Shown here piece after piece: positions 14,302 through 60,674 of a stretch of 64,000 nt of DNA. The position numbers were made by a program, and so were the translations under genes. The DNA is taken from the NCBI RefSeq assembly GCF_048287415.1, contig NZ_JBLWEN010000001.1, positions 88,790 through 152,789 of the forward strand, in the 5' to 3' direction. This DNA is from Candidatus Electronema sp. JM. Lineage in GTDB: Bacteria; Desulfobacterota; Desulfobulbia; Desulfobulbales; Desulfobulbaceae. How positions within the stretch are numbered: position 1 is the stretch's first letter; each line of letters opens with the position of its first letter. Under the pieces are notes generated by a model that saw only the letters and a list, made by a program, of their open reading frames with translations, searched no databases and was not told the origin of the DNA.

Positions 14302-14720
14302 TTGATGCTGTCAGCTTTCATGCAGCGTATATCAAGCGGCTCCAGCAGACGGTTGAGGATCAATGACCATATTGACAGTCATCCCGGCATGAAGCAGGAC
14401 ATGGAGCTGCTGGTCAACATTCCGGCGGTCGGGCCGCAGACCGGCAGCAAGATGCCCGCAGTCATGAAAGCCCGCCATTTTCAATCTGCCGAGCAGCTCG
14501 CCGCTTATTTGGGCCGGGCACCTCTCGAAGACAGGTCCGGCCAAACTTCGGGCTGTGCCGCACATGGCCGCTGTTGTGGCCGTTCGGCGTAATCCGAACA
14601 TCAAAGCCCCCTATGCACAACTGCTTTCGCGGCAAATCCACAATGTCGGCTTTGGGGGCTGCAATGCGCAAGCTCGCTCATTCTGCTTCGGCGTGGTGCT
14701 CACTTGCTATTCTGCTCCAG
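14302..14720 (+). pseudogene. IS110-family transposase C-terminal remnant. It is frameshifted and lacks the N-terminal DEDD catalytic domain.
   Basis: IS110-like C-terminal motifs are split across three frames: LLVNIPAVGPQTGSKMPA...FQSAEQLAAYLGRAPLEDRSGQTSG, then AVVAVRRNPNIKAPYAQLLSRQ, then AAMRKLAHSA. The fragment abuts the 3' end of gyrA. Confidence 0.6.
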
Positions 14721-25300: not shown

Positions 25301-26110
25301 CTCGCCTTCCAGAAAGATCGGCTGCGGATGAATCGGGGTGCGGTTGCGGTTCAGGTGCTCGACATATTCAACCACGCCGCCTTCATAATGAAACACATCC
25401 TCAGCCCCGCTTTGCTCATCCTTCAGGGTGATGTGAACGCCCCGATTGAGAAAAGCCAGCTCGCGCAGCCGGTTGAGGACGATCTCGTATTTGAACACAA
25501 CCGTCTGGGTGAATATCTCCGGGTCTGGCTTGAAAGTAATCGTGGTGCCGGTGTGCTCGCTGGTGCCAACCACCTCCAGCTCGCTGGTCTTTGCGCCGTA
25601 AGAGAAGGTCTGCCGGTAGAGCTTGCCGTTGCGCCGCACCTCAGCGGTGACATGGGTGGAGAGCGCATTGACCACCGACACGCCCACGCCGTGCAATCCG
25701 CCGGAAACTTTATAGGACGAATGATCGAACTTGCCGCCCGCGTGCAAGGTGGTCAGCACCAGCTCAAGAGCGGTCATGTTTTCCGTCGGATGCTTGTCCA
25801 CCGGAATGCCGCGTCCGTTGTCTTCGACCGAGCAGGAACCGTCCTCCAGCAGGATCACCTTAATCTGGTTGCAGTATCCGGCCAGAGCCTCGTCAATCGA
25901 GTTGTCCACCACCTCGTAAATCAGATGATGCAGCCCTTCTTCCGCCGTGTTGCCGATATACATGGACGGACGCTTGCGCACCGCCTCAAGCCCGTCAAGA
26001 ACCTTGATCTGATCCGCCCCGTAGGACGTGTTCTGCTGTTCGCTCACTTGCTTGCCTTCTCTGAAGAATTTATACGGAAAACGGCATGGTTGCGATGCGG
26101 CGCGCCGCAT
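22337..26110 (-). CDS. gyrB: DNA gyrase subunit B carrying an in-frame intein of about 433 aa. The real start is probably near 26035-26050 at [17 protein letters not shown].
   Basis: GHKL ATPase motifs are present ([38 protein letters not shown]). A TOPRIM domain with EGDSAGG is interrupted by [10 protein letters not shown]...GVFVHN. The sequence then resumes [27 protein letters not shown] and continues to the C-terminus ...[11 protein letters not shown]. Confidence 0.95.
23453..24751 (-). mobile_element. Intein inserted in GyrB TOPRIM, between EGDSAGG and SAKQGRD, with an HNH-type endonuclease module
   Basis: The first intein residue is Cys (block [14 protein letters not shown]). The intein ends VHN followed by Ser(+1). 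The internal HNH-like motif is [31 protein letters not shown]. The extein-only length is about 800 aa, normal for GyrB. Confidence 0.8.
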
Positions 26111-27050: not shown

Positions 27051-28052
27051 ATGGCGCTTTTTGAAGGATACGAACGGAGAATCAGCAAGATCAACGCGGT
27101 GCTGGCCGAACACGGGATCAAGGATTTGGATGCGGCCAAGCAGCTCTGTTTAGATGCGGGCGTGGATGTCTATGCCATTGTCAAGGGCGTGCAGCCGATC
27201 TGCTTTGAGAACGCCTGCTGGGCCTACATCGCCGGTGCGGCCATTGCTTTGAAAAAAAGGCAGAAAAAGGCGGTGGAAATTGCCTCCACTTTGGGCATCG
27301 GCTTGCAGGCCTTTTGCATTCCCGGCTCAGTGGCCGAAAACCGCAAAGTGGGCATTGGTCACGGCAACTTGGCCGCCCGGCTCCTTAGCGAGGAAACAAA
27401 GTGCTTCGCCTTTCTCGCCGGGCATGAGTCCTTTGCCGCTGCGGAAGGCGCCATCGGCATTGCCAGATCCGCCAACCGGGTGCGCACTGAGCCGCTGCGG
27501 GTCATCCTCAACGGCCTCGGCAAAGACGCGGCCTATATCATCTCGCGCATCAATGGCTTCACCTATGTGAAGACACAGTACGACTACTACAGCGGCGCAC
27601 TCAACATTGTTGAGGAAAAGGCGTTTTCCAGCGGCGAGCGGGCCAAAGTGCGCTGCTACGGCGCGGATGACGTGCGCGAGGGCGTGGCCATCAACCACTT
27701 GGAGCTGGTCGATGTGTCCATCACAGGCAACTCGACCAACCCGACCCGCTTCCAGCATCCGGTGGCCGGAACGTACAAGAAGGAATGCCTTGAGCAGGGC
27801 CGGAAGTATTTCTCGGTGGCTTCCGGCGGCGGCACAGGCCGGACGTTGCACCCAGACAACATGGCCGCTGGTCCGGCTTCTTACGGCATGACCGACACCA
27901 TGGGCCGGATGCACAGCGACGCGCAGTTCGCCGGCTCGTCCTCCGTGCCTGCGCATGTCGAAATGATGGGCTTTATCGGCATGGGCAACAATCCGATGGT
28001 TGGCGCATCAGTGGCGGTGGCAGTGGCCTTGCAGCAGGCGGCGGGGCAGTAA
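27051..28052 (+). CDS. GGGtGRT-family protein
   Basis: It contains the eponymous motif (FSVASGGGTGRTLHPDNMA). It starts 6 nt after the upstream NifU-like gene. Confidence 0.75.
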   Translation: MALFEGYERRISKINAVLAEHGIKDLDAAKQLCLDAGVDVYAIVKGVQPICFENACWAYIAGAAIALKKRQKKAVEIASTLGIGLQAFCIPGSVAENRKVGIGHGNLAARLLSEETKCFAFLAGHESFAAAEGAIGIARSANRVRTEPLRVILNGLGKDAAYIISRINGFTYVKTQYDYYSGALNIVEEKAFSSGERAKVRCYGADDVREGVAINHLELVDVSITGNSTNPTRFQHPVAGTYKKECLEQGRKYFSVASGGGTGRTLHPDNMAAGPASYGMTDTMGRMHSDAQFAGSSSVPAHVEMMGFIGMGNNPMVGASVAVAVALQQAAGQ

Positions 28053-28272: not shown

Positions 28273-31200
28273 ATGCGCATCCTCAAACTCCGCCTGCGCA
28301 ACCTCAACTCCCTTGTCGGCGGGTGGGAGATTGACTTCACCCACCCGGCCTTTGCCGACGGCATCTTCGCTATCACCGGCCCAACCGGCGCAGGCAAGAC
28401 CACTATTCTCGATGCGCTCTGCCTCGCGCTGTATGGCCGCACGCCGCGCTTGGATAAAGTGACGAAGCGCGGCAATGAGATTATGTCTCGGCAGAGCGGC
28501 GAATGCTTTGCCGAGGTGGAATTCTCGGTCGGCAAGGAGGCCCGCCGCTGCTCCTGGAGCCAAGGCCGCAGCCGGAAAAAGGCGGACGGAGAACTTCAGC
28601 AGCCGAAGCGCGAGCTGTCGCTGCTCAACGGCGAGATTCTTGCCAGCAGCGTCAGCAGCGTGGAACAGCTTGTTGAGGAATGCACCGGCATGGATTTCGA
28701 CCGCTTCACCCGCTCCATGCTGCTCGCGCAGGGCGGTTTCGCCGCCTTTCTCCAAGCCTCGCCGGATGAGCGTTCGCCGATTTTGGAGCAGATCACCGGC
28801 AGCACAATTTACAGCGAGATATCCATCCGTGCGCATGAACGCTGGAAACGCGAAAACGACCGCCAGAAGCAGCTTGAGGAACAGGCGGCGGCCTTCCAGC
28901 TTCTCAGCTTGGAAGAAGAGGACGTGCTGCGGCAGGAGCTGGACAGGCTGCGCGGCGAGGTGCGCGTTCAGGGCGACAGGCTGACGCAGCTTGATGCCGC
29001 TCTGAAATGGCTGAAGCGACTTGCTGATCTACGCCAAGACGTGGCAGCGGTCAGCAGGGAGCAGGCCGGGCTGGCTGCGGCGCAAGAGCAGTTTGCCGCC
29101 AGCGAGCAGCGGCTGCGTCTGGACGGACTGGCCCTGCTTGTAGCTGGGGAGCACGCCGCCTTGGCCGCCCGGCGTAAGCAGCAGGCGGATGATCTCAGTG
29201 CAGCGGCAATCTTACGCCGCAGCCTGCCGGAGCTGGAAGCCGCGCTCAAGGCGGCAGACGGGCGGTTGGTCAGCAGCGGCGATGCGCTTGCAGCAGCCAA
29301 AGCAGCGCAGGAGACAGGCCGCGTCCTTATCACCAAAGTGCGCGAGCTGGATTTTCGCTTGCAAGAGAAGCGGGCCGCGCTGCGCAAGCAGGACGAAGCC
29401 TGCGCCGAATTGCGCCGGAAAAATGCTGCTGATCTCGCCGCCTGCGGGAAGCTGGAGCAGGAGCTGCGGCGTGTTCAGGATAGTCAGCAGCAGAGTGCGG
29501 CTTATCTGGCGAAACATGCGGCAGACGAGCGGCTGCTGACAGACTTGACCGGTCTCGGTCAGCAATTGAAGCAGCTTGGCGAGCTGGCCTGGCGGCATGA
29601 GGATGTCAGGCTCGCAGCGGCACTTGCTGAGAAAACCGCTGCCGAGGCGGCGCAGTTCTGGCAGGGCAAAGCTGCGGCGCGGCGCAAGGCGGATGAGCTG
29701 CTTGCCGAAGTGCAAGAGGCACGGGCGGCGGCGGACAACGAATTTGCTCAGCTCCTGCAAGGCCGCCGGGCTGAGGAGCTGTGGCACGAGCAGAACGCCT
29801 TGATCACGCTGACCAAGCTGCTGGCCCAAGCAGATATGCTGGCCAAGGAGCGGGCTGATCTGCATGAGCAGCAGGTTGCGAACAGCGTGGCCAAACAGGT
29901 GCTGGCAGAGACGCTGCGCACGCTGCGGCAGCACTGCAATGCGGCACGGCAGGAGGAGGAAGTCCGGCGGATTGAAGCGGACTTTGCCAAGCGCGTGCTC
30001 AGTCTGGAGGAGCAGCGGGCGCGGCTTCAGGCCGGACAGCCGTGTCCGCTCTGCGGCTCGCCGGAGCATCCCTACGCACAGGGCGGTTTACCTTTGCTGC
30101 ATCAGGCCGAATTGGCCGCGCAGGCAGCCGCTGCGGCCTTGCGGCAGGCTGAGGAAGCTCTGAACAAGGCGGACAAAGAGCAGGCGCGGTTAGATCAGGC
30201 TGCCCAGCATCTCGATGAGCGTCTGACTGAGAAGAACACGGCCATGCAGGCACTTCAGCAGCAGACAGCCAACTGCTGCGCCGAGCTGGCTCTGGTGCCG
30301 GAGCAGCAGCTGTCGGAAATTGAGCAGCGGCTGCATGAGAATCGGCAGACCGTGCAGGCCGCTGAGGCATTGACCAAGAAAATCAGCCAGCTTGGCAAAA
30401 CGCTGGAGCAGCGGCAGGCCGCCTGCATCCAAACTGCGCAGGATGAAAGCAAGGCCGCTGCTGCGCGGGATAAGGCGCAGGAGGCGCGGCAGCGTCTGGC
30501 TGAGGAAGAGCGCAATTTAGCAGAAGATGTGGCGGTAAAGCTGCGGGCGGCGCAAACTGAGCTAGCGGTGTACGGCTGCGCTGAGTTCTCGCTGCGGGAG
30601 ATTGACCAAACCGCCATTGCGTTGACCACCCGCCGCGACACATGGCAGCGGCATCAGCAGCAGCGTATTGCGGCGGAGCAGAAGATTGCCGGGCTTGATA
30701 CAGACGTAAAGGTGCTGCGGGCGGGCATTGAGCAGCGGAACAGGCAGCTTGAGCACGAGGAGCCGCTGCTGCAAGCAGGACGGCAGGAGGCGGAACGGTT
30801 GGCCGCTGAACGGGCCGCGCTCTTTGCCGACAAGCAGCCGGAAGCGGAAGAAAAGCGGCTGGCTGAGGCGGTCAAAGCGGCGGAGCAGGCCGTTGAGCAG
30901 GCGCAGGCGGCGCAGCAGCGACAAGAGAAAACGCTGCATCAGCAACACGCCCTGATCAGCAGCCGGGAGCGTGCCGCTGCGGACAGGATGCCGGAGCTGG
31001 CGCGGCAGGAGGCAGCCTTTGCCGAACGGCTGCGGGCGGGCGGTTTTGCCGATGAAGCGGCTTGGCAGACGGCGCAGCTTGCTGAGGCGGAGCGGGCGGC
31101 CTTGCGGCGGCAGGCGGAAGAGCTGCGTGACCGCCGGACACAGCTTGACGAGCGGCGGCGCGACCGCGAAGCCCGCTTGGCCGAGGAGGAGCAATTAGCC

Positions 31201-31884
31201 CTCACCGACTTGGATCAAGCGCGGCTGGAGGAGGAGCAGGCCGGGCTGACGCTCGCCAGCCGCCGGACAGCGGAGCAGATCGGCTCGCTGACGCAGCGGC
31301 TTGCTGACAACCAGGAGCGGCGCGGCCAGCAGAGCGGCCTGCTCCGTGAGCTGGCGGCGCAGAAAACAGAATGCCTGCGCTGGAAAAGCCTGCATGACCT
31401 GATCGGCTCGGCGGACGGCAAAAAGTACCGCAACTTTGCTCAAGGACTGACCTTTGAGCAGATGGTGCTGCACTCCAACCGCGAGCTGGCCCGCATCCAC
31501 AGCCGCTATCTGCTCCTCCGCGATCCGCAGCAGCCGCTGGAGCTGAGTGTGGCTGATTTCGAGCAGGCGGGCGAAGTCCGCTCCGTCAAAAATCTTTCCG
31601 GCGGCGAGAGCTTCATGGTCAGCCTCGCTCTGGCCCTCGGTTTATCAAGCATGGTCGGCGGCAAGGTGGAATCCCTCTTTCTTGATGAGGGCTTCGGCAC
31701 CTTGGACGACGACGCGCTGGACTCCGCCTTGGCCCGGCTGGCCGAGCTGCGCGGCGAAGGGCGGCTGATCGGGGTGATCTCGCATGTGGCCGCGCTCAAG
31801 GAGCGGATTGCCTGCCAGATTGAGGCCCTGCCCGGCAGCGGCGGGCGGAGTGTGCTGAAAGGGCCGGGCGTGCGGCGGCTGTGA
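28273..31884 (+). CDS. sbcC: SbcC/Rad50-family ATPase with zinc hook. No sbcD is adjacent.
   Basis: There is an N-terminal Walker A (ITGPTGAGKTTILDALCLALYG). A 900-aa coiled coil carries a CxxC hook (GQPCPLCGSPEHPY). The C-terminus has the signature and Walker B / D-loop (LSGGESFMVSLALALGL...LFLDEGFGTLDD). Confidence 0.9.
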   Translation: MRILKLRLRNLNSLVGGWEIDFTHPAFADGIFAITGPTGAGKTTILDALCLALYGRTPRLDKVTKRGNEIMSRQSGECFAEVEFSVGKEARRCSWSQGRSRKKADGELQQPKRELSLLNGEILASSVSSVEQLVEECTGMDFDRFTRSMLLAQGGFAAFLQASPDERSPILEQITGSTIYSEISIRAHERWKRENDRQKQLEEQAAAFQLLSLEEEDVLRQELDRLRGEVRVQGDRLTQLDAALKWLKRLADLRQDVAAVSREQAGLAAAQEQFAASEQRLRLDGLALLVAGEHAALAARRKQQADDLSAAAILRRSLPELEAALKAADGRLVSSGDALAAAKAAQETGRVLITKVRELDFRLQEKRAALRKQDEACAELRRKNAADLAACGKLEQELRRVQDSQQQSAAYLAKHAADERLLTDLTGLGQQLKQLGELAWRHEDVRLAAALAEKTAAEAAQFWQGKAAARRKADELLAEVQEARAAADNEFAQLLQGRRAEELWHEQNALITLTKLLAQADMLAKERADLHEQQVANSVAKQVLAETLRTLRQHCNAARQEEEVRRIEADFAKRVLSLEEQRARLQAGQPCPLCGSPEHPYAQGGLPLLHQAELAAQAAAAALRQAEEALNKADKEQARLDQAAQHLDERLTEKNTAMQALQQQTANCCAELALVPEQQLSEIEQRLHENRQTVQAAEALTKKISQLGKTLEQRQAACIQTAQDESKAAAARDKAQEARQRLAEEERNLAEDVAVKLRAAQTELAVYGCAEFSLREIDQTAIALTTRRDTWQRHQQQRIAAEQKIAGLDTDVKVLRAGIEQRNRQLEHEEPLLQAGRQEAERLAAERAALFADKQPEAEEKRLAEAVKAAEQAVEQAQAAQQRQEKTLHQQHALISSRERAAADRMPELARQEAAFAERLRAGGFADEAAWQTAQLAEAERAALRRQAEELRDRRTQLDERRRDREARLAEEEQLALTDLDQARLEEEQAGLTLASRRTAEQIGSLTQRLADNQERRGQQSGLLRELAAQKTECLRWKSLHDLIGSADGKKYRNFAQGLTFEQMVLHSNRELARIHSRYLLLRDPQQPLELSVADFEQAGEVRSVKNLSGGESFMVSLALALGLSSMVGGKVESLFLDEGFGTLDDDALDSALARLAELRGEGRLIGVISHVAALKERIACQIEALPGSGGRSVLKGPGVRRL

Positions 31885-33006: not shown

Positions 33007-35025
33007 TTACAGGCCGCGAACTGGCGGCAAGGAAAGGGCAAGCCGGAAGCCCAAGTCGTCGCTGCGGTTGTCCGGCGAGTACCAGTAGCGGAACGCCGCC
33101 CGCACGAACAAGGGTGAGTCGCCCCAGCTACCGCCGCGAAACACGCGGCTCGAGCCTTTCTCAGGGCCAATCGGATTGCCCTTAGGACTGACAGCGTAAT
33201 AACCACTGTTGTACCAATCCGCGCACCACTCCCAGACATTGCCGTGCATGTCGTGAAGGCCCCAAGCGTTGGCCTTCTTTTCACCAACTGGATGGGTTGT
33301 ATTGCCGGAATTTTTGCCGTACCAAGCATAGTCCTGAAGCTGCGCCTCATCATCACCAAAGCACCAAGCCGACTCACTGCCTGCCCGGCAGGCATATTCC
33401 CACTCCGCTTCGGTGGGGAGGCGATAGGTGTGACCTGTTTCCTGACTCAGCCATTGACAGTAGGCAACCGCATCGTCCCAGCTTACATTGATCACCGACC
33501 GCTGCCCTCTGCCCCAGCCCCTGTTTTCTTTACCTGTGGCCTCACAGAAAACATCGTACTCGGCAAAGGTGACTGGATAGCGGCCAATGGCAAAGCTGTC
33601 CAGTTCCACCTCATGCACCGGTCGTGCATCGTCACTGCCATTGCCCTGAATATCTCCCATGCGGAAACGACCGCCGCGTATAAGCATCATCTTTATTCCG
33701 AGTCCACCGCCAAAAGACTCCGGCAAAAGACAAGGTAAGGCAATCTGATCAACGTGCCTGAATATCCCATCAGCAAGATCAACAAAGCGCACGAGCTGAT
33801 CCGTGGCCCGCAGCGGTGTTTGTTCAGCCAACTGCTTCTGCACGATGCCCCAAGCTAAGAGGAACTCCTGCACCGTGTAATGGCTGAAGCGGAAGGCGCG
33901 GTCAGAGTTGCGGTTGAGCAAAGATCGTCCGCCCAGCTCGAACTGCTCCAGCCAGGCTATGTTCGCGTCCGCACGGATGAGCTGCTTCAGCTCATCCTCT
34001 GAGAGTACCCGCGTGCCCTGCCGCTGCATCCGCTCCGCAATCCGCAGGCAGGCCAGAAAGAGTTCCTTGCGCTCAGGCACCTGCTCGCCTTGATGCTGCT
34101 CCCGCAGCTTGCGCACTTCCCGGTCAAGCCATTCCTCCACCGTGTAGGTGTTCCAGTCTTGGCGGCGGCAGTCCTTGGCCAGCAGCTTGTCAATATGCTG
34201 AAGGAGCATGGGCCGCATCCGCAAATCCTGCATGTGCTTGAGCAGACAGTCCGCCTTGGCCCGCTCATCCCTGATCTTCCCAGCCTGAAAGCACAGACGA
34301 TGGTGCCAATGCAAGGGCAGCTTGCGCTCAATGAAGTCCTGCACTTGGGCATCGGTGAAGGGGGAAAGATACAGCACCGGGCAGTGATAGCCGGACAGCA
34401 CCCTGATCTCCGGGCGGCCAAAGCGGTCTGGCTCCATCTCCGGGAAGAACTGCGTCCGGCTGGAGATGAGCACCCGGCGGAAATCCTCGCTGGCGCGCAG
34501 CAGCTCCAGCAGGCGGTCGCGGATGCGCTTCCATGCCTGCGGGTCTTCGTCCAAGGCATCGAGCAGCAGGACGGTCCCGCCCTTGTTCGGCAGAGCCTGC
34601 ACGCGCTCCAAGGTGTCTTTCCCCAGCTTGAACAGGGCGCAGCCATGCCCCTTGGGCCAGAAGCTGGTCAGGTGCATGAGCTTGATCATCAGCAGCAGCG
34701 AGGTCTTGCCCATCCCAGCATCAGAGAGGATGAACATCTGGTGGCGGCCATCCTTCTCCAAAGGCAGACCGCCCTGAAAGAACTCGTTGATCCGCTCAAA
34801 GGCAGGCTGCCGGGCCGCAGAGAGCAGGTCGTCCTGCTGCACATCCGCCGGGTTGCGGTCTTGCAGGAACGGCTCAATGTAGAGGCCGCGCAGGGTTTCA
34901 GGATCAACGAACTCGTCCCGCAGACGGTCAAGCTCCTGCTTCCGCTCGCCGGTCAGTTGCGTGAGCCGCTTCCAAAGATCCTTAATCCACGCTGGCTTGA
35001 CAAAGCTCAGGACTTCCAAGGCCAT
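33007..35025 (-). CDS. STAND NTPase with an N-terminal NACHT-like P-loop domain fused to a C-terminal formylglycine-generating-enzyme (FGE-sulfatase/SUMF1) fold
   Basis: Walker A is LSDAGMGKTSLLLM and Walker B is VLLLDALDED. The C-terminal approximately 250 aa have FGE hallmarks (RGGRFRMGD...RPVHEVELDSFAIGRYPVT..EY, WDDAVAYCQWLS, RLPTEAEWEYACRAG, HGNVWEWC, RGGSW). Confidence 0.8.
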   Translation of the reverse strand: MALEVLSFVKPAWIKDLWKRLTQLTGERKQELDRLRDEFVDPETLRGLYIEPFLQDRNPADVQQDDLLSAARQPAFERINEFFQGGLPLEKDGRHQMFILSDAGMGKTSLLLMIKLMHLTSFWPKGHGCALFKLGKDTLERVQALPNKGGTVLLLDALDEDPQAWKRIRDRLLELLRASEDFRRVLISSRTQFFPEMEPDRFGRPEIRVLSGYHCPVLYLSPFTDAQVQDFIERKLPLHWHHRLCFQAGKIRDERAKADCLLKHMQDLRMRPMLLQHIDKLLAKDCRRQDWNTYTVEEWLDREVRKLREQHQGEQVPERKELFLACLRIAERMQRQGTRVLSEDELKQLIRADANIAWLEQFELGGRSLLNRNSDRAFRFSHYTVQEFLLAWGIVQKQLAEQTPLRATDQLVRFVDLADGIFRHVDQIALPCLLPESFGGGLGIKMMLIRGGRFRMGDIQGNGSDDARPVHEVELDSFAIGRYPVTFAEYDVFCEATGKENRGWGRGQRSVINVSWDDAVAYCQWLSQETGHTYRLPTEAEWEYACRAGSESAWCFGDDEAQLQDYAWYGKNSGNTTHPVGEKKANAWGLHDMHGNVWEWCADWYNSGYYAVSPKGNPIGPEKGSSRVFRGGSWGDSPLFVRAAFRYWYSPDNRSDDLGFRLALSLPPVRGL

Positions 35026-35193: not shown

Positions 35194-38100
35194 ATGAATA
35201 CTACCCAGCCGCCGCCCATCGCCTCCAAGGCTCTTGAAGCCAACTTCCAGCAGACCGCCAGTGCCGTTGCAATTTCTCCCCGCTACGCCCCGCTGCGGGA
35301 GGCCGTGGCCCGCTATCAGGGCTTGTCCGCCCGGCTGGAGCACCTGCTCTACGAAATCAGCCACCCGTTCCGCAACTGGCAGCTCATCATCGCCGAGCTG
35401 CGGCCCTTTGTCCTCAAGAATCTCAATCATTACCTCAGCCATGCGCAGGGGCCGGACTGCTTCGCCCTCTTCAGCTCGATCTTCCTGGACGCGCTGAAGG
35501 ACTCGCGCAAAAACAGCAAGGTCATCGCCCTGACCATGGAGGCCATGCTCGCCTATGCGGACAAAGTCGTCGCCTCGCTCAAGCCGGACATGCTGCCGCT
35601 CTACGGCCCGCAGCTCAACGCTTTTTTCGAGCAGCTCGCCCGCTTGGACGAGATAGACAGCAGCCTGATGGCGCACATGGTGCAGGGCCATCATCCGATG
35701 AAGAAGATGGCGGCCCAGCTCATCAGCCTGAGCCGCAGCGCGGGCGCGGAAACCTTCTCCTGCGCTGCGGCGGCCAAGCTGCTGCGGAAAATCCTCGAAA
35801 TCAACTATGCCTGCTGGCTGGGCGAAGAGGATCCGCAGCCTTGGTTCGAGTCGCAGTGCGGCGGCGGCAGCTGCTGCGGTCAGGCCGGAACCGACTTGGC
35901 GGCGATCTCTCACAGCCGGATGCGCGAGCATCTGACCGCGCTGGAGCAGATCAGCATTGACGAGGATCCGCAGGAGGCCCTCAGCCGCATCTTGGAGCTG
36001 CCCGCGCATATCGACATCGTCCGCCTCTACCGGGAAATCCCCGGCAAATTAGGCGAACATGCTGCGGACACCGACCCGGCGGCGGTGGAGAACCGGAAGC
36101 TCTTCTTCCTCTTCCGCATCATGGAGACCTCCGGCCTCTCGCTCATTCATGAGGAAACCCTGCGCGAGATCAACCGTTCTTTGGTGCAGCTCATCCGCCG
36201 TCAGAGCTTTGACGAGATTGCCGAGTTTTTCACCACCGCCTTTCACTTGCTCAAGGCCAATGTGCGCAAATATCCGCACACTTCGCTGCAATGTATTCAG
36301 GTCATCGGCGGTGAAGTCTTCCAGCGCGGCAACTCGCGTTTAGTTGAAGCCTTCCTCTTCGAGACCGTGCGCTTCGGCTTCCAGCACGCCAATGTCATGG
36401 GCGTGGACGAGGACTGGCAGCCGATCAGCAACCCGGCGCATTTGGCCAACATCCGGGTCTGGCTGAACTTGATCATGCAGGAGCCGAAATGGTGCTCGAC
36501 GCTCTTCTCGGCCCTGATCATCAACCTGCGTCTCTCCGGCACCTGCGTCAAAGACACCGACCTCTTCCAGCGCGACATCACCCAGCTCCTCAATCATCCC
36601 ATCGGCCCGATCTATAACTTGGCCAAGCAGTTCAGCAAGCTGATGCCGGTCTTCTTCAATGAGATCGGCGCGGAAGGCGAGCTGCGCGATGTCTCCACCG
36701 AATTGGATGAACTGCACAAGCGGCACGACGTGCTCATTCATTTTCTCCGCAAGCAGTCGCACGTCGAGTCGTCGAACCTGATTGTCGGCTTCATCCGGGC
36801 CATCTACAGCTTCTGGCTGACCTTGGACAAGAAACCGCTGGCCGCCTATCTGCCGGAAGAAATCCTCAGTCAGGTGGCGAGCAGCGGCCCTTATGTGGAC
36901 GAGCTGCATCTGCTCGCTCAACAGGTGCGCGAGGAATTGGAATACAGCACAGTGGACGAGCTGCTGACCTGGGACGAGGCGGAGCGGAAAGACTGGCTGC
37001 TGCGCCAGAGCGACATTTCCGCTGGCGAGCGCAAACGCTTTGACCTGCTGGTGCGGATGTTCAAGCTGCTCCACCACAAATACAGCTTGGGCATGGATGA
37101 GCTGCGCGGTCAGCTCGAGCACGCGGTGCAGAACGGCTTCCCGGAAATGACCGAGCTGCTGGAGGTTTTGGAGCACGGCGACACCTGGACCTGCTTGGAC
37201 GCAGTGCTGACGCAATTAGAGCAGCTTAAAGAGACCATCCTCAGCGACAAGAAATTTGCGCCGAAGGAGGAAATTTACTACAAGCGGCACATCGCGGTGG
37301 ATATTCCTTCCGTCTATGGCCGCTATTCGGAGCGCAAATTTGACGCGCTCGGCCTGACCTTCCGCTTGGAGAGCCTGGCCAATATTTATTTGGAACGGCT
37401 GAACCGCTCGATCAATCTCGGCTTCATCACCCAAGCCACCTTCATCGGCATCGCCAAAAGCCTCAGCCTCTCTCTCCGCGCCCTGAAGATTGACGGCATC
37501 AGCAGCCGCCGCTTGGACACCTACACCAGCCTGCTCAACTCCTCGATCAGCATCAAACGCTTCACCTACACCCAGCACTTGGACATCTTCCGTGGGTTGT
37601 CAGAAGGGGTGAAGGATGTGATTTATGCCTATTACACCAATATTCATCAGAACAATCTCTCGGTCATCATTCCCCAGATCGGCGGCGAGAATCTGCTGAC
37701 CAAAAACCGGACGCTCTGGGACGAGAAGGACATGTCCTCGACCGTGCACCGCCTTTCCGAGTCCTTCTTCCGCGACCTGATCGCAGCCACCTTCGGCCTC
37801 CAGCATTTGGACAACTTCATCACCCGCATCATCCACACGCTGGAGGCGCAGCGCGACATTCTCGACGAGCAGACCCTCGACCTGCTCATGACCTACAACC
37901 CGGAAATCGCCATCTCCTCGCTCTACAACGAGAATCCGCTCACGCACAACCTGATTCATCTCGGCAACAAGGGCTTCAACCTCATGCTCTTGGCCAACGA
38001 CGGCAAGCCGGTGCCGCCCGCCTTCATCATCACCACTGAAATATTCCGCTGCTGGCAGGCGGTGCAGGGCTTCACCAAGGCGCGGGAGGAGTTTATGCAG

Positions 38101-39444
38101 CGGCTGCACACCTCCATCACCGGCTTGGAGGAGCGCACAGGCCGCCGCTTCGGCTCGCCGGAAAACCCGCTGCTGCTTTCGGTGCGTTCCGGCGCGGCGA
38201 TTTCCATGCCCGGCATGATGACTACGATCCACAACGTCGGCCTGAACGAGGATTTGCTGGAGGAGCTGTGCGTCAAGCACCCGGAGCAGGAGTATTTTCT
38301 CTGGGACACCTACCGCCGCTTCCTGCAATCTTGGGCGATGGGCGAAGGCATGGGCCGCGAGGAGTTCGGCGCGCTGATGAACGCGCACAAGAAACGCTAC
38401 GGCAAGCGGCTGAAACGCGAATTCAGCCCGGCGCAGATGCGCGAGCTGGCTCTTGAATACCGCAACGCCATGCGGCGGCACGGATGCAGCGCGCCGGAAG
38501 ATCCTTGGCTTCAGCTGGTGCGGGCGGTGGAGATGGTGCTGGATTCGTGGAGCACCCATAAAGCCCGCCAGTACCGCCACCTGATGGCCGTCTCCGACGA
38601 CTGGGGCACAGCAGTGATTGTCCAGACGATGGTCTATGGCAACCGCAATCAGCAGTCCGGCAGCGGCGTGCTCTTCACCGCCCATCCCTACCGCAAGGTG
38701 CGGCGGGTCGCGCTCTGGGGCGATTACGCCTCCGGTGATCAGGGCGAGGACATCGTCTCCGGCCTTGTCACCAGCTATCCGATCTCGGTCGAGCAGGCGG
38801 AGCTGGACGGGCGTTCGGTCGAGCAGAGCCTCGAACGCCGCTTCCCGGAGATCTACGAGCAGCTCCTCAGCATCTCCCGCGACTTGGTGTACACTAAAGA
38901 ATGGAACCCGCAGGAGATTGAGTTCACCTTTGAAAGCCCTGACCCGGACGATCTCTACGTGCTCCAGACCCGCGACATGATCACCATCAAGAAGAAGGAG
39001 CATTTCCGGGTCTTCGAGGAAAGCGAGGCGCAGCAGGCGGCGGTGCTCGGCAAGGGCATCGGCGTGAGCGGCTCCGCCATCTCCGGCCTGGCTGTCTTCA
39101 CCGACGAAAACATCCGCCAGCTCCGCCACGAGCAGCCGGACATGCCGCTCATCCTCCTCCGCCAGGACACGGTGCCGGAGGACATCCGGGAAATCTCCAT
39201 GTGCGACGGCCTGCTCACCGCGCGCGGCGGCCAGACCTCGCACGCTTCCGTGGTCGCAACGCGCTTGGAGAAAACCTGTGTGGTCGGCTGCCGCGACTTG
39301 CAGGTCTTCGAGGACAAGGAGCAGGCGGCCATCAACGGCCTTGTGATAAAATTCGGCGACCCGGTCTCCATTGACGGGCGCAGCGGCCTCTTCCTGCGCG
39401 GCATCCATCCGACGCGAGAAGAGGTGCATATTTTGCCGCTGTAG
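35194..39444 (+). CDS. Giant 1416-aa protein. An unknown approximately 900-aa N-terminal region is followed by PPDK-type ATP-grasp (PPDK_N) and PEP-utilizing phosphohistidine (swivel) domains. It lacks a PEP/pyruvate-binding TIM barrel.
   Basis: The C-terminal third reads LGNKGFNLMLLANDGKPVPPAFIITTEIF...NPLLLSVRSGAAISMPGMM...HLMAVSDDWGTAVIVQTMVYGN...RGGQTSHASVVATRLEKTCVVGC, the conserved His motif. The ORF ends 60 aa later. The N-terminal 900 aa have no motif I recognise. Confidence 0.75.
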   Translation: MNTTQPPPIASKALEANFQQTASAVAISPRYAPLREAVARYQGLSARLEHLLYEISHPFRNWQLIIAELRPFVLKNLNHYLSHAQGPDCFALFSSIFLDALKDSRKNSKVIALTMEAMLAYADKVVASLKPDMLPLYGPQLNAFFEQLARLDEIDSSLMAHMVQGHHPMKKMAAQLISLSRSAGAETFSCAAAAKLLRKILEINYACWLGEEDPQPWFESQCGGGSCCGQAGTDLAAISHSRMREHLTALEQISIDEDPQEALSRILELPAHIDIVRLYREIPGKLGEHAADTDPAAVENRKLFFLFRIMETSGLSLIHEETLREINRSLVQLIRRQSFDEIAEFFTTAFHLLKANVRKYPHTSLQCIQVIGGEVFQRGNSRLVEAFLFETVRFGFQHANVMGVDEDWQPISNPAHLANIRVWLNLIMQEPKWCSTLFSALIINLRLSGTCVKDTDLFQRDITQLLNHPIGPIYNLAKQFSKLMPVFFNEIGAEGELRDVSTELDELHKRHDVLIHFLRKQSHVESSNLIVGFIRAIYSFWLTLDKKPLAAYLPEEILSQVASSGPYVDELHLLAQQVREELEYSTVDELLTWDEAERKDWLLRQSDISAGERKRFDLLVRMFKLLHHKYSLGMDELRGQLEHAVQNGFPEMTELLEVLEHGDTWTCLDAVLTQLEQLKETILSDKKFAPKEEIYYKRHIAVDIPSVYGRYSERKFDALGLTFRLESLANIYLERLNRSINLGFITQATFIGIAKSLSLSLRALKIDGISSRRLDTYTSLLNSSISIKRFTYTQHLDIFRGLSEGVKDVIYAYYTNIHQNNLSVIIPQIGGENLLTKNRTLWDEKDMSSTVHRLSESFFRDLIAATFGLQHLDNFITRIIHTLEAQRDILDEQTLDLLMTYNPEIAISSLYNENPLTHNLIHLGNKGFNLMLLANDGKPVPPAFIITTEIFRCWQAVQGFTKAREEFMQRLHTSITGLEERTGRRFGSPENPLLLSVRSGAAISMPGMMTTIHNVGLNEDLLEELCVKHPEQEYFLWDTYRRFLQSWAMGEGMGREEFGALMNAHKKRYGKRLKREFSPAQMRELALEYRNAMRRHGCSAPEDPWLQLVRAVEMVLDSWSTHKARQYRHLMAVSDDWGTAVIVQTMVYGNRNQQSGSGVLFTAHPYRKVRRVALWGDYASGDQGEDIVSGLVTSYPISVEQAELDGRSVEQSLERRFPEIYEQLLSISRDLVYTKEWNPQEIEFTFESPDPDDLYVLQTRDMITIKKKEHFRVFEESEAQQAAVLGKGIGVSGSAISGLAVFTDENIRQLRHEQPDMPLILLRQDTVPEDIREISMCDGLLTARGGQTSHASVVATRLEKTCVVGCRDLQVFEDKEQAAINGLVIKFGDPVSIDGRSGLFLRGIHPTREEVHILPL

Positions 39445-39495
39445 CTGATGGCGAAAAAGGGGCGAAGAAAATCGCCCCAGTAGAATCAGCGCAAA

Positions 39496-40212
39496 CTATT
39501 GAGCAGTGCCTTTTCGAGGAATCTTCAGCCGTAGTCTTGGATAAATTAAGTTTGGGTTATCCATCAACTGAGGATGCTTCTCTTTATTTGCCAAAATAAT
39601 TTCTTGAACAGAAACGTGGTGTCGTTCAGCGATCTTTCCTAAACAATCGCCTTCCATTACTTGATAGCAGTCTTTGCCTAAATAGCAATCAACAGTCTCC
39701 TTTAGTTCTGTGATATTTTCTGGATTGGCATAGAATATGTAGACTGGCGCGAAAATCAAAGAAACAGCGTACCATCTTTTTTTACGAAATATCCATCTAA
39801 TGTTTATTGTTTTTTCATAAATTTTTTTTATTTTGCTTTTGCAATTTTCAATAAAAATTATGCCGCCGCTCAAGATGCCATCTATTTTATAGACAAAAAC
39901 AGGCAGATTCGACCTGTATTTCCGTATCAATCTATTTCCATATCCTTCCATGTAAAGAAGGATAAAAAACAATGTAAAAACACAGAATGCTATTATTTTA
40001 AATAAAATCATTAAAATCCAAGGAAGCACCCGGAGCGCAAGCCAAGGAATCAACAACATCAATACGAAAAGAATAACAAACGGGAGTGCAACGGATAGCC
40101 ATTCTGATCTTGATGCAGAAAATAGCTGTTCGGAAATAACTTGGAAGAAAAGAATACCTTTTATAAGGTATTCATCTTGAATTTGGTTTAACAGGCTATT
40201 CAGGCGTTCCAT
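39496..40212 (-). CDS. Membrane protein with a C-terminal LysM domain (last gene of the AT-rich operon)
   Basis: It has 2-3 TM helices (LPFVILFVLMLLIPWLALRVLPWILMILFKIIAFCVFTLFFILL). The C-terminal LysM is CYQVMEGDCLGKIAERHHVSVQEIILANK...NLIYPRLRLKIP. The gene is visibly AT-rich. Its start overlaps the upstream gene by 17 nt. Confidence 0.7.
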   Translation of the reverse strand: MERLNSLLNQIQDEYLIKGILFFQVISEQLFSASRSEWLSVALPFVILFVLMLLIPWLALRVLPWILMILFKIIAFCVFTLFFILLYMEGYGNRLIRKYRSNLPVFVYKIDGILSGGIIFIENCKSKIKKIYEKTINIRWIFRKKRWYAVSLIFAPVYIFYANPENITELKETVDCYLGKDCYQVMEGDCLGKIAERHHVSVQEIILANKEKHPQLMDNPNLIYPRLRLKIPRKGTAQ

Positions 40213-41437
40213 CTCTCCTTATTGATTCAGGGTGTATATTAATATCCGCACTTTCTTCTTGTTGATCCTGTTGTTTTTCCTCGCTGGATGACTTTTCTCC
40301 AATAAGAGCAGCTCCTTGGTCTGACAATCTTCCTACCTTCTGCACAAGTGATTTGGCAATATCCTCAAACCTCCATTCGCCGATCACACCTTTTTCAACG
40401 AAAATTTTTAATATTTCTATACAAGTTGAATTCTCTTCAACACGCATCTTCTCTTCCCTGTCTATTTGCTGTTTGACAAATGAAAGCAATTCTCTGTCGT
40501 TTGGATTTTCTGGATTGCATATTGCAATAATTCCGCGCCAATTACCAATTGACAGGAGCGGCGACAGCAGCGTTTCCCTATTTAGCCTATGATTGAATTC
40601 AATTCGCTGCATTTCAAGCTGCTTCTCAAATTCAATCTGCTTGATTCGCATCTCTGCTTCCATTTTCTTCAATTCAAAATTCATACTTTGTTCCAGCAGG
40701 ATAGTTTGCCTATAAAGCTCAATTTTCCTATCCTTAAATAGCAGCTCCTGTCTCATGGACTCTATCTCCATTTTCTGCTGCATCAGCCGTTTTTCCATTT
40801 CAGCCTTTATGGCATCTACCGAGAATTGCTCCTGAATGATTTTTTCTTGATTTTTTGCATCTATCGTCCCCAGCTTTCCATCAATCAGCCTTTTGCTGAT
40901 GGATTCATGTGGCGACAGCGTAACGAATGGAGGACGGCTTAACTTGAATCCTAAGTCATGAATTTTATTGCCATATATCAATTGACTTTTAAGCTCCTCA
41001 ACAACAGCTCGTTCTGCCTGCGATGCCTGCTCGTTCGCATAGTTTCGACAGATAGGCCGGATTATATCAAGAGCTGACTCTTTTAAAAAATCCCGAATGT
41101 CTCTCCTTCCATTCTGCACAATAAGCAATGGATTATCTATGCAATAAGTCAATGTGACTTCAGCTTGAAAAGGGAGTTCGTCAGCACAAGGAATACTTAC
41201 TGAAAAAAGAATTGAATATTCCGACAGATCAACTTCATAATACACCTTATATGTGCCGATGAGAATGTCGCCAGCTGTCGGCCCGCCATTTTTTCCTGCG
41301 TAAACAACAATTGGCGGACAATTTTCTCCAAGAAAGACATGTGCCTTTCCGAATTTCGGCGATTCAGGCCGTTTGAAGGAAAATTTTTCCAGTTTTCTCT
41401 CAATAACAAGCGGATATTCTTCAGGAGCGAAATCCAT
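40196..41437 (-). CDS. SPFH/band-7 (flotillin-like) domain protein with a long coiled coil and a C-terminal unknown domain
   Basis: The segment AEVTLTYCIDNPLLIVQNGRRDIRDFLKESALDIIRPICRNYANEQASQAERAVVEELKSQLIYGNKIHDLGFKLSRPPFVTLSP matches the SPFH-core consensus pattern. It is followed by an approximately 100-aa heptad-rich E/K/Q coiled coil. No TM segment is present. Confidence 0.5.
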   Translation of the reverse strand: MDFAPEEYPLVIERKLEKFSFKRPESPKFGKAHVFLGENCPPIVVYAGKNGGPTAGDILIGTYKVYYEVDLSEYSILFSVSIPCADELPFQAEVTLTYCIDNPLLIVQNGRRDIRDFLKESALDIIRPICRNYANEQASQAERAVVEELKSQLIYGNKIHDLGFKLSRPPFVTLSPHESISKRLIDGKLGTIDAKNQEKIIQEQFSVDAIKAEMEKRLMQQKMEIESMRQELLFKDRKIELYRQTILLEQSMNFELKKMEAEMRIKQIEFEKQLEMQRIEFNHRLNRETLLSPLLSIGNWRGIIAICNPENPNDRELLSFVKQQIDREEKMRVEENSTCIEILKIFVEKGVIGEWRFEDIAKSLVQKVGRLSDQGAALIGEKSSSEEKQQDQQEESADINIHPESIRRDGTPE

Positions 41438-42929
41438 TTTTTATCTCTGTTAAAATTTTCAAGGAAGTTTCAGATTCATCAGACCATTTTTCTAAGTACG
41501 CGCAAATGCAATTGCGATTTCTTGGAATACGAGAGACATCATATAAAATTCTTGCGAGAGTTTTCCAGAATTTTCCGTGCATGTCAATATGTTTCAGCCA
41601 CTTGAATATTTCAGTAAGAGCAAGTCGTCTGATTGGCTCCGAATCAAAAACTCTTTGCAGCAGACGGACAATGAGTTCTTCCGTCTTTGCTTTCTCTTCC
41701 GCAAGAATAAGAAGGCTCGGATGCTGGGAGCCGTCTTTAATTGACCAAGAAATACGCATCAAATCTGAAAATATAAGCAGAGACAAGCGATGAAGCGAGG
41801 ATTTTTTCTCCTGCCGTCCCCATTGGTTAAGAGATTGCAGAACGAGAACCGACGAACTTGATTGCTTGAAGAGCCATTTGACAGCATAAGCTATATCTTT
41901 AAAGAGTATTCCGTTGCCTGAATTTGCAATATTTCTTAAATCTTCGAGAGCTTGTTCAGGAAAATGCTGACCAAGACAAGAGCAATATGCGAAAATTGCA
42001 GTTTGATTCAATTTGACTGAATTTTTCAGACTACTCCAATAATGAATACTATTTAAAGAAAGTTGAGCAACATCTTCGTTTTCATCATATAAAACAACTG
42101 CAAGCGCAAATCCAACTAATTTTTGGATAGATTGACTTTCTGATTTTGCCCAAGGCAACAATATTTGGTCACGAACCGGTTGAAATTCATACCGTGCCAG
42201 CCGACCCGCTGTTGCTGCTGCTCTCAGTCTGATTTGAGAATTTTCATGTTTCCCTAACTCAAACAACCATTGCAGCATTGCTTTTGCATAAACATCACGT
42301 TCATGCCAGATGTGATGCAAAACAGTTTCTGGAGTTTCTTGGTCATCAAATGCAACTTTCTTGACAGGACTTTTGCCGCATTCGGTAACTTCGCAATCAT
42401 TTTCAAGATGCGCTGATATGTCTTTAAGCCACTGACTCCTTTTCTTTTCCTCTATCTCTTCGTCCAGATTAGAAGTATTTTCTATCTCCGCTTCCTTCCG
42501 CGACTGCAACCGAATGATATTTTGCAAATACTGGCTCGCCTCATCAACTAATCGGTAATTGCAGCCATTAAACACTGACAGTGAAATGATAAAACTGCGC
42601 CTGCTTTTGCAGCTATCAAATATAGATTCGATAGAAGAATCAAACGATTTATCTTTGTCCGCTTGCGTTTTTTGGCCAGAATAATTGCTCTGATCTCCGG
42701 CGATTATCGAGCCAGTATTATTTATATTGCTGTTTGATGCATGAAACCCTCCAGTGTAATTATAATTTTTAATTATTTGAATAATAGTTCTGCTGTTCTC
42801 TGTAAAATCATCTGTTTCGTTCGTATGTATTTTATTGTATTTTATAGATTCTTCAACAGATTTTATACCGTCATCTTCAGAAAGATGATCAATTTTTTCA
42901 AAGAAATTTTCTTCGTCGCCTTGTTCCAT
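41421..42929 (-). CDS. Hypothetical 502-aa protein with a C-terminal HEAT/ARM-like helical repeat region and an acidic N-terminus
   Basis: It is tightly coupled to its neighbours (a 14-nt gap upstream and a 17-nt overlap downstream). It carries no family motif I recognise. The C-terminal half is predicted all-alpha with periodic L/A/W patterns. Confidence 0.45.
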   Translation of the reverse strand: MEQGDEENFFEKIDHLSEDDGIKSVEESIKYNKIHTNETDDFTENSRTIIQIIKNYNYTGGFHASNSNINNTGSIIAGDQSNYSGQKTQADKDKSFDSSIESIFDSCKSRRSFIISLSVFNGCNYRLVDEASQYLQNIIRLQSRKEAEIENTSNLDEEIEEKKRSQWLKDISAHLENDCEVTECGKSPVKKVAFDDQETPETVLHHIWHERDVYAKAMLQWLFELGKHENSQIRLRAAATAGRLARYEFQPVRDQILLPWAKSESQSIQKLVGFALAVVLYDENEDVAQLSLNSIHYWSSLKNSVKLNQTAIFAYCSCLGQHFPEQALEDLRNIANSGNGILFKDIAYAVKWLFKQSSSSVLVLQSLNQWGRQEKKSSLHRLSLLIFSDLMRISWSIKDGSQHPSLLILAEEKAKTEELIVRLLQRVFDSEPIRRLALTEIFKWLKHIDMHGKFWKTLARILYDVSRIPRNRNCICAYLEKWSDESETSLKILTEIKNGFRS

Positions 42930-42942
42930 TTTTGATCTCTCT

Positions 42943-43353
42943 TCATTTTTTATTTATTTGATCCCTGCCTATAAAAGTCCCTTCATTGACAAAGGTGGAA
43001 TTTTTGATAAGCACACCTCCTGTTTGCACAATTCTTTCTACCTTTACCCCATAAAGCCGTGCGATATCTAACGCTAATTCCTGATCTTCTTGGAGCAGCT
43101 TTTTCACTTGAAAGTGCAGAGTCTTCTGCGCATCTTCTTCTGAAGGATCCCGTACCACATCTTCTGCCGCCATTTTCACACCTTCAACTCTTGCAGAAGA
43201 ACGGGAAGAAATTTTTGTCCAGACAGCCTTGGCCGTCTCCCATCCGTCAGAACCTATTTTTTCTAACGCTCCTCCCAGTATCTGTCCCCCACCGCTCAAC
43301 AGATAAGGAAGTACTGGCACTAAAGAAGAAACAACCATTTCAGCAAGTTCCAT
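42943..43353 (-). CDS. Hypothetical 136-aa protein, first gene of the AT-rich operon
   Basis: The ORF has a Gly-rich N-terminus (LLSGGGQILGGALEKIGSDGWE). It is followed within 14 nt by the next gene. No homology is recognised. Confidence 0.4.
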   Translation of the reverse strand: MELAEMVVSSLVPVLPYLLSGGGQILGGALEKIGSDGWETAKAVWTKISSRSSARVEGVKMAAEDVVRDPSEEDAQKTLHFQVKKLLQEDQELALDIARLYGVKVERIVQTGGVLIKNSTFVNEGTFIGRDQINKK

Positions 43354-53208: not shown

Positions 53209-53293
53209 TTGCACTATAGTGGAAGCAGCCATTGCACTACAGTGGAAACCTCGGTTGCACCATAGTGCAAACATCGGTTGCACTATAGTGCAA
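53209..53293. promoter_or_regulatory. Array of four 16-bp palindromic sites (TTGCAC-NATA-GTGCAA) at exact 23-bp spacing, about 120 bp upstream of the ROCO start
   Basis: Units start at 53209, 53232, 53255 and 53278. Units 3 and 4 are perfect palindromes. Units 1 and 2 have the half-site variant GTGGAA. Confidence 0.8.
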
Positions 53294-53412
53294 CCGCAAG
53301 CCACAGCCTGCTGGCCGCTTGGCTGCGAGGAAGCTGCAAGTATCCGAGCCATGCTCGAAGGCATTGCAGGGGCACCCTTAGCACAACCACACACCCACGG
53401 AGGAACGAGGCG

Positions 53413-60542: not shown

Positions 60543-60674
60543 ATGAACAAAGAAGAAGCCTTGCGGCGGATTAAACACGTGGAGGAGACAGGAGCAACGA
60601 GGCTTGATCTGAGCTTTCAAAGATTGACTGAACTGCCGCCTGAACTCTTTCAAATAAAAAATGAACCAACTTGA
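60543..60674 (+). pseudogene. 43-codon stub of a ROCO/LRR-family N-terminus with a conserved RBS region
   Basis: MNKEEALRRIKHVEETGATRLDLSFQRLTELPPELFQ... parallels MSKEEALQLIKEAAETGATWLNLFNQGLSEIPPEVFA... at 53413. The upstream GGAGGAACGAGGCGATGA is shared with the ROCO gene. Confidence 0.6.

Follow-up and report, generated by a model that had tools for sequence, protein, structure and literature searches.

We examined a 64,000-nt stretch of DNA from Candidatus Electronema sp. JM (NCBI RefSeq assembly GCF_048287415.1, contig NZ_JBLWEN010000001.1, positions 88,790 to 152,789 of the forward strand), referred to here as the window, and focused on one large protein that it encodes. This protein, termed BIG, is specified by an intact reading frame at 35194..39444 (+ strand), which runs from ATG to TAG and codes for 1416 aa. 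BIG joins an ATP-grasp domain and a phosphohistidine swivel domain of the pyruvate phosphate dikinase (PPDK) type to a preceding region of some 900 residues that resembles no known family or fold, and there is a strong genomic link between its homologues and genes for glyceraldehyde-3-phosphate dehydrogenase (GAPDH). The family appears to present a new acceptor domain on a phosphohistidine dikinase chassis, with a strong lead towards the GAPDH step. We tentatively favour, with somewhat less than even confidence, the reading that BIG is a phosphohistidine dikinase of PPDK origin, with an acceptor-binding N-terminal domain and GAPDH as its partner; the acceptor may belong to the 3-phosphoglycerate/1,3-bisphosphoglycerate pair.

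Domain anatomy and conservation of BIG

The catalytic module occupies the C-terminal third of the protein. Pfam placed PPDK_N at aa 965-1205 (E 2e-27) and the PEP-utilizers domain (PF00391) at aa 1319-1398 (E 3e-16), but did not find PEP-utilizers_C (PF02896), the phosphoenolpyruvate (PEP)/pyruvate TIM barrel, in BIG. A phmmer search of the Protein Data Bank (PDB) aligned aa 920-1409 with residues 17-513 of Clostridium symbiosum PPDK (EC 2.7.9.1; PDB 1kbl/1dik; E 1e-73), with which BIG shares the three ATP-grasp subdomains, the linker and a swivel domain containing T-S-H. A first-pass annotation made from the sequence had described a PPDK-type ATP-grasp and swivel histidine without a PEP-binding barrel, and both parts of that description held. 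In the alignment, aa 920-1265 match PPDK residues 17-~340, and K926, R998, E1241, E1243, Q1258 and R1260 of BIG correspond to C. symbiosum K22, R92, D321, E323, Q335 and R337, residues to which PPDK mutagenesis has assigned catalytic roles. Equivalents of all six, and of PPDK His455, are invariant across the BIG family. The His455 equivalent, His1350, lies in the motif GGQTSHASVVAT at aa 1345-1356, and the stop codon follows 66 residues past it. The chain terminates 7 residues beyond the point aligned with PPDK residue 513, a residue that in PPDK falls within the linker to the PEP/pyruvate barrel. In contrast to PPDK, BIG therefore has no TIM barrel, stops inside the stretch that would form the second linker, and carries a 915-residue region ahead of the ATP-grasp domain. 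Because the barrel is absent and the extra region is N-terminal, the His domain of BIG is C-terminal and tethered on one side only.

This layout is not an artefact of a broken gene. The best 120 BIG homologues, from Ca. Electronema, Ca. Electrothrix and other Desulfobulbaceae, are 1412-1446 aa long, 67-87% identical to BIG over 99-100% of the query, and share its end point; more distant relatives keep the same layout at 1335-1575 aa. A missed frameshift concealing a barrel domain, which would have undone the first-pass description, was ruled out because hundreds of homologues are full length and have the same stop. Within its order BIG keeps 67-87% identity along all 1416 aa, and its GC content at third codon positions (GC3), 0.84, is among the top values in the window; both would fit a housekeeping enzyme.

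Comparison with curated protein families gave only sub-threshold matches. The top NCBIfam match of BIG was PPDK (TIGR01828, 355 bits against a cut-off of 843), followed by NF004531, a model of the truncated-PPDK type with about 490-530 aa (292 bits, cut-off 456). The PEP synthase models TIGR01418 and NF005057 scored 66-73 bits against cut-offs of 598-740 and matched only the His domain region, and the rifampin phosphotransferase model NF041857 scored 31 bits against a cut-off of 999. Of the features that define PPDK, BIG has the ATP-grasp domain with its catalytic residues and the swivel G-G-x-T-S-H histidine; the barrel was not found. BIG falls outside PPDK, PEP synthase, the VadK type, rifampin phosphotransferase and glucan, water dikinase alike, while belonging to their superfamily and sharing the swivel mechanism in outline. 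Judged by these scores, the catalytic module descends from PPDK and not from rifampin phosphotransferase.

The first 915 residues have no recognizable relative of known structure or function, as the first-pass annotation had proposed for a region of approximately 900 aa. Pfam at E<=10 and NCBIfam returned nothing within aa 1-915, a core profile of the region found nothing in PDB sequences under E 0.46, and a Foldseek search of the modelled structure against the PDB gave only solenoid matches at TM 0.1-0.17. We considered a repeat protein of the HEAT/TPR kind, and rejected it: hhalign comparisons of one part of the region with another gave probabilities <1%, and there was no periodicity. AlphaFold2, run with a 65-sequence alignment, modelled aa 1-920 with a predicted local distance difference test score (pLDDT) of 85.4 and a predicted template-modelling score (pTM) of 0.76. 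The model contains approximately 48 helices, a few two-residue bridges and a single beta hairpin at aa 691-712. The core, aa 385-920, reached pLDDT 87.5 and pTM 0.85 when modelled separately.

Conservation of the N-terminal region was judged from family alignments of 26 and 65 sequences. Across phyla 29 of its residues are invariant, mostly Arg, Lys, His, Asp and Glu, and the conserved motifs DTDLFQ(K/R)D, FNEIGAEG, HFLRKQxHVES and KRHIAxxIPSxYGxY are all present in BIG. The invariant residues of the first conserved block are H416, R421, D454, D456, E494, R498, D505, R510, D512, R519, K520 and H523; those of the second are K697-R698-H699 and I704-P705-S706-x-Y708-G709. Information per column reaches 3.0-3.3 bits at aa 441-520 and 3.1 bits at aa 681-720, compared with 3.29 bits for the block around the His motif and 3.05 bits for the ATP-grasp core. 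Because these charged invariant blocks equal the His motif in conservation and repeats are absent, the region looks like a catalytic or anionic-ligand site rather than a passive scaffold. Residues 698-705 have pLDDT <50 in both AlphaFold2 models, and the position of the invariant K697-R698-H699 in this poorly predicted hairpin loop suggests that the loop may be mobile.

The extent of the family was determined with aa 1-915 alone as the query against 1.84 billion cluster representatives. This query matched 592 clusters (50% identity), 197 of them at E<=1e-30. Every full-length match was 1335-1540 aa long, and the N-terminal region is therefore found only fused to the PPDK-like module. With one genome scanned per species, relatives of BIG are encoded in at least 592 genomes, so that the family extends to at least about 600 species in several phyla, among them environmentally important groups such as sulfate reducers, syntrophs, magnetotactic bacteria and cable bacteria. 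Source names place its members in Desulfobulbales, Desulfobacterales (Desulfocicer), Syntrophobacteraceae, Syntrophorhabdus and Magnetococcus marinus MC-1, as well as in Marinimicrobia, Eisenbacteria, Myxococcales and Miltoncostaeaceae (Actinomycetota). Cultured organisms that have an orthologue include Desulfobulbus, Desulfogranum mediterraneum (P0111) and Magnetococcus marinus (ABK44898.1). BIG has the arrangement that defines the family, an N-terminal helical domain followed by the PPDK ATP-grasp and the swivel His in a protein of ~1335-1575 aa. A subgroup of ~1520-1575 aa, including Myxococcales-type members, carries an additional N-terminal hemerythrin domain (PF01814; P0362, P0163 and P0386, the last at L008:8001-12623), which hints that these proteins are under O2, redox or iron control. 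Many family members bear the database names "pyruvate phosphate dikinase" or "phosphoenolpyruvate synthase"; these labels are wrong, and metabolic reconstructions that use them will therefore contain wrong reactions. A full-text search of the literature found no account of the BIG architecture, the nearest characterized protein being VadK.

Genomic pairing with GAPDH genes

Outside Desulfobulbales, BIG homologues are paired with an unusual GAPDH gene. All six distant loci that were annotated individually have a gene for a 417-429-aa GAPDH-like protein directly downstream, and two of the six also hold a canonical gap, tpiA-secG or pgk-tpiA-secG. A further 80 metagenome loci, with 41-77% identity to a distant core, were surveyed. 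In 60 of the 80 the long GAPDH-like gene is present downstream, although only 61 of these loci reach at least 1.5 kb in that direction; it is 40-600 nt away, with distances of up to 1.9 kb in five cases. Outside Desulfobulbales no other neighbour recurs in more than 10 of 86 loci; the long GAPDH gene is in tandem or convergent orientation.

The long GAPDH paralogue differs from the canonical enzyme. It scores 289-336 bits with TIGR01534, under the cut-off of 367. Compared with an E. coli GapA reference sequence, it retains the residues of GAPDH that serve in catalysis (Cys150 and His177) and in phosphate binding (Thr180, Arg195 and Arg232; E. coli GapA numbering), but N-x-G-R takes the place of the NAD-ribose Asp of the A-I-N-D motif and there are four insertions. 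This change from Asp to Gly-Arg suggests a dedicated enzyme with an altered cofactor pocket. Examples are found at L006:12202-13455, L091:10275-11564, L090:10074-11333 and L089:10291-11571, and outside Desulfobulbales the long form is nearly always beside a BIG homologue.

Within Desulfobulbales the partner is different. Among 80 genomes of this order, the long form is absent near the BIG homologue, and a canonical 334-aa gap (TIGR01534 438-443 bits, above the cut-off) is instead encoded on the same strand in 53 of the 80 loci, mostly immediately upstream of the BIG homologue (gene position -1 in 37 loci). The usual gene order is aroK, aroC, a glycogen-synthase-like gene (Glyco_transf_5 plus GT1, ~560 aa), gap and then the BIG homologue. 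This order is seen, for instance, at L025:2200-6570 and in about 40 further Desulfobulbales loci. Among the related loci as a whole, pgk and tpiA adjoin the BIG homologue in approximately 10. Because the pairing is kept in three arrangements across phyla, a functional link is favoured over inherited synteny alone.

Other neighbours did not recur in this way. A heavy-metal P-type ATPase gene was considered as a downstream partner after it appeared in two of the first four loci. It is present in only 7 of 83 loci overall, and its proximity is therefore lineage synteny. In four close relatives of BIG the neighbours are unrelated. None of the genes that surround BIG in the window was found near BIG homologues in any of 171 related loci. 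The same check disposes of a link to a gene of the NACHT-FGE type that the first-pass annotation had raised, since no such gene lies near the homologues.

Possible reactions and competing explanations

Known dikinases of the swivel type act on pyruvate (PPDK and PEP synthase), starch, rifampin or prodigiosin precursors. Each of these acceptor domains marked a biochemical function of its own, and the N-terminal domain of BIG would be the fifth, structurally unprecedented. We propose that the family arose when a PPDK lost its C-terminal PEP/pyruvate barrel and gained a ~900-residue all-helical N-terminal domain. By homology to PPDK, the ATP-grasp domain would bind ATP, and probably also phosphate (Pi) or pyrophosphate (PPi), and phosphorylate His1350 on the swivel domain. 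Held by a single linker, the swivel domain would then swing to the N-terminal domain, and the anatomy of the protein suggests that its phosphoryl group is delivered there. In blocks 396-530 and 685-730, invariant residues of the Arg, Lys, His, Asp and Glu types may make up a site that holds the acceptor and catalyses the second transfer. Finally, BIG would act jointly with GAPDH on 3-phosphoglycerate and 1,3-bisphosphoglycerate as the acceptor/donor pair; linked to AMP and Pi/PPi, it would be a counterpart to phosphoglycerate kinase and would feed or drain a dedicated GAPDH. The identity of the acceptor as the carboxylate of 3-phosphoglycerate, or of the donor in reverse as 1,3-bisphosphoglycerate, is speculative. 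A neighbourhood of gap, pgk, tpiA and the GAPDH paralogue puts the BIG family at the step of the phosphoglycerate kinase/GAPDH couple. However, BIG resembles phosphoglycerate kinase neither in sequence nor in fold, and its hypothetical chemistry would use phosphohistidine and AMP instead of direct exchange between ADP and ATP.

The most specific version of this proposal is that BIG is a hitherto unrecognized enzyme of central carbon metabolism, a 3-phosphoglycerate, phosphate (or water) dikinase with a phosphohistidine that would couple ATP + Pi <-> AMP + PPi to 3-phosphoglycerate <-> 1,3-bisphosphoglycerate; we consider this version unlikely. Standard hydrolysis energies would place the reaction ATP + Pi + 3-phosphoglycerate -> AMP + PPi + 1,3-bisphosphoglycerate near equilibrium by a rough estimate, at approximately +4 kJ/mol. 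If the proposal is correct, BIG and a probably NADP-accepting GAPDH paralogue would provide an AMP/PPi-linked route between 3-phosphoglycerate and glyceraldehyde-3-phosphate, parallel to GAPDH plus phosphoglycerate kinase. This would be the third PPi-linked step of glycolysis/gluconeogenesis after PPi-phosphofructokinase and PPDK, and it would operate in low-energy anaerobes with a turnover of AMP and PPi in their sulfur metabolism, sulfate reducers and cable bacteria among them.

Several observations weigh against a metabolic partnership of BIG with GAPDH. The long GAPDH gene is convergent with the BIG homologue in 43 of the 63 cases in which it lies downstream, and in those 43 the two are therefore not co-transcribed. 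The presence of pgk in the same clusters means that the enzyme cannot be a simple replacement of phosphoglycerate kinase. BIG is solitary in the window and in other cable bacteria, and no GAPDH gene was found within the 64 kb of the window or beside the cable-bacterial BIG copies. In addition, a helical domain of ~900 residues is very large for a three-carbon metabolite, helical scaffolds often bind proteins, and the N-terminal hemerythrin domain of the longer subgroup is typical of sensors and regulators.

The main rival reading is a regulatory role, in which BIG would be a phosphohistidine kinase resembling VadK and its helical N-terminal region a docking or sensor scaffold. Such a kinase would control GAPDH or neighbouring glycolytic enzymes through phosphorylation, or through binding that depends on its own phosphorylation state, without turning over a metabolite. 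We regard this as a doubtful but credible alternative. VadK of M. tuberculosis (Rv1127c) is a PPDK cut after the His domain that has lost the PEP domain, autophosphorylates its swivel His (His422) with ATP and Mg2+, and interacts with methylcitrate-cycle enzymes (bioRxiv 10.1101/2025.10.30.685616; EMBO Rep 2026, PMC13400623). Like BIG, it is thus a PPDK derivative with ATP-grasp and His domains that is tied to enzymes of central metabolism, and the model NF004531 is the second-best NCBIfam match of BIG. Possible sensing of O2, redox state or iron by the hemerythrin-fused members, the weak solenoid-like matches of the all-alpha region, and convergence with the GAPDH paralogue, which is compatible with a regulator-target pair, are all in keeping with regulation. 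However, with 292 bits BIG does not reach the cut-off of NF004531, and VadK is an actinomycete protein of ~490 aa that has no N-terminal domain and whose partners belong to the methylcitrate cycle rather than to the GAPDH step. Scaffolds are usually conserved diffusely over their surface, whereas BIG has short invariant charged blocks of active-site-like strength and no repeats in its N-terminal region. A dedicated GAPDH paralogue also suits a pathway better than a regulatory circuit. Whether BIG adds a new reaction or a new layer of control at the 3-phosphoglycerate/triose-phosphate node, either would revise the picture of lower glycolysis and gluconeogenesis for the bacteria concerned.

Other roles for the phosphohistidine are much less probable. 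Plant and algal glucan, water dikinase (GWD) and PWD match BIG in size (~1400 aa) and logic, in that a large N-terminal part for substrate binding is combined with a phosphohistidine dikinase module like that of PPDK, and a glycogen-synthase-like gene lies two genes upstream of the BIG homologue in 41-42 of the 80 Desulfobulbales loci. We nevertheless think it very unlikely that BIG phosphorylates glycogen or another storage polymer bound by its N-terminal domain: the glgA link is limited to one order, is absent from distant clades and may be inherited synteny. GWD carries beta-sandwich CBM45/CBM20 carbohydrate-binding modules and has its His domain before the nucleotide-binding domain. The N-terminus of BIG is all-alpha with no such module in Pfam at E<=10 and no beta-sandwich, and its ATP-grasp precedes the His domain, the reverse of the GWD order. 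It is highly improbable that BIG phosphorylates small molecules or xenobiotics in the manner of rifampin phosphotransferase or the PEP-synthase-like ligases PigC/RedH. These enzymes belong to the same superfamily and share the logic of an ATP-grasp, a non-barrel acceptor domain and a swivel His, and their NCBIfam models match BIG weakly, but at 24-37 bits against cut-offs of 999-1350 and in ATP-grasp segments only. Their order is ATP-grasp, acceptor domain and His, compared with N-terminal region, ATP-grasp and His in BIG, and they have a PEP-synthase-type ATP-grasp without the helical subdomain found in PPDK. They are found in the context of resistance or secondary metabolism, whereas BIG belongs to a vertical, housekeeping-like family tied to gap, pgk and tpiA; no member was seen inside a biosynthetic gene cluster, nor did PADLOC return any match to BIG, which also led us to reject a defence system. 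The first-pass comparison with rifampin phosphotransferase thus survives as a route from ATP through His to another acceptor, which remains the best reading, but fails for the origin of the module, which appears to be PPDK, and for the domain order. Least probable of all is the reading of BIG as a standard PPDK or PEP synthase, with a PEP/pyruvate domain that was overlooked through a frameshift or is encoded separately, as the database names of many members would have it. The frameshift version is refuted by a stop position that is constant in hundreds of genomes and by the terminator-like hairpin and the convergent foreign genes downstream of BIG in the window, and the TIGR01828 score of BIG is less than half of the cut-off. 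The annotated neighbourhoods of BIG and its homologues contained no gene for PEP-utilizers_C, which speaks against a split enzyme.

Features and other genes of the window

The features of BIG and the adjoining hairpin are listed below.

Features of the BIG locus, in window coordinates
Feature	Coordinates	Strand	Evidence
BIG, PPDK-derived dikinase-like protein (putative)	35194..39444	+	Complete open reading frame, 1416 aa plus stop
N-terminal region, aa 1-915, all-alpha, without known family or fold	35194..37938	+	Pfam, NCBIfam, PDB, model
N-terminal motif E-x-x-HP[FY]xNW, invariant E54 and H57	35353..35379	+	Both alignments
Conserved block 1, aa 396-530, motifs DTDLFQ(K/R)D, FNEIGAEG, HFLRKQxHVES	36379..36783	+	Alignments, information content
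Conserved block 2, aa 685-730, beta hairpin 691-712	37246..37383	+	Alignment, information content
PPDK-type ATP-grasp nucleotide-binding domain, aa 920-1265, including PPDK-specific helical subdomain	37951..38988	+	Pfam, NCBIfam, PDB alignment
Phosphohistidine swivel domain (PEP-utilizers), aa 1283-1409	39040..39420	+	Pfam, PDB alignment
His1350 codon CAC, in GGQTSHASVVAT, equivalent to PPDK His455	39241..39243	+	Alignment; family-invariant
GC-rich terminator-like hairpin	39459..39478	-	15 nt past BIG stop, between convergent genes

BIG stands between a divergent gene upstream and a convergent one downstream. The upstream gene (33007-35025, - strand) encodes a 672-aa protein with an FGE-sulfatase domain at aa 445-663; its first 440 aa contain no NACHT or other Pfam domain at E<=0.001. 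The hairpin is called as a - strand terminator, for the LysM gene, because a T-run trails the stem on that strand only. Transcription of BIG on the + strand may also end there, and if the hairpin closes the transcription unit there is no same-sense coding downstream.

The LysM gene belongs to a low-GC island at 39496-43353 (- strand), with a GC content of 0.40-0.43 and GC3 of 0.33-0.38, compared with ~0.58 and 0.7-0.8 in the surrounding DNA. Its four genes encode the LysM protein, an SPFH/Band-7 protein and two proteins without a Pfam match, and PADLOC gave zero matches within it. The island was probably acquired horizontally, and probably parts BIG from its former downstream neighbours.

A second swivel protein is encoded at 60661-63261 (+ strand). 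The first-pass annotation had listed it as a shorter PPDK-like paralogue of BIG. The gene exists, but its product belongs to the PEP-synthase type and shares only 21% identity with the C-terminal module of BIG, and close paralogy was rejected for that reason. In this 866-aa protein the ATP-grasp spans aa 142-460 and the swivel His domain aa 495-564; the PEP barrel is absent, and the last ~290 aa have no Pfam match. The gene is part of a same-strand run that encodes a histidine kinase (58536-59942), a response regulator (59918-60307), the swivel protein and a second response regulator (63274-63717). This arrangement suggests a separate, signalling-linked swivel kinase.

Several further genes of the window deserve mention. 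The gyrB gene (22337-26110, - strand) encodes a 1257-aa protein with an intein (Intein_splicing, aa ~473-886) ahead of the Toprim domain, and gyrA lies at 14707-17247 on the same strand. A gene for a GGGtGRT-family protein (27051-28052, + strand) is followed by one for a 1203-aa SbcC/Rad50-like ATPase (28273-31884, + strand), which has moderate PADLOC matches to mad3 (E 4e-23) and LmuB (E 4e-18). An LRR-Roc GTPase reading frame (53278-54363) and a COR-A/COR-B reading frame (54460-55434) are arranged head to tail on the + strand. Together they account for a bacterial ROCO protein, either encoded by two separate genes or broken by a frameshift or stop.

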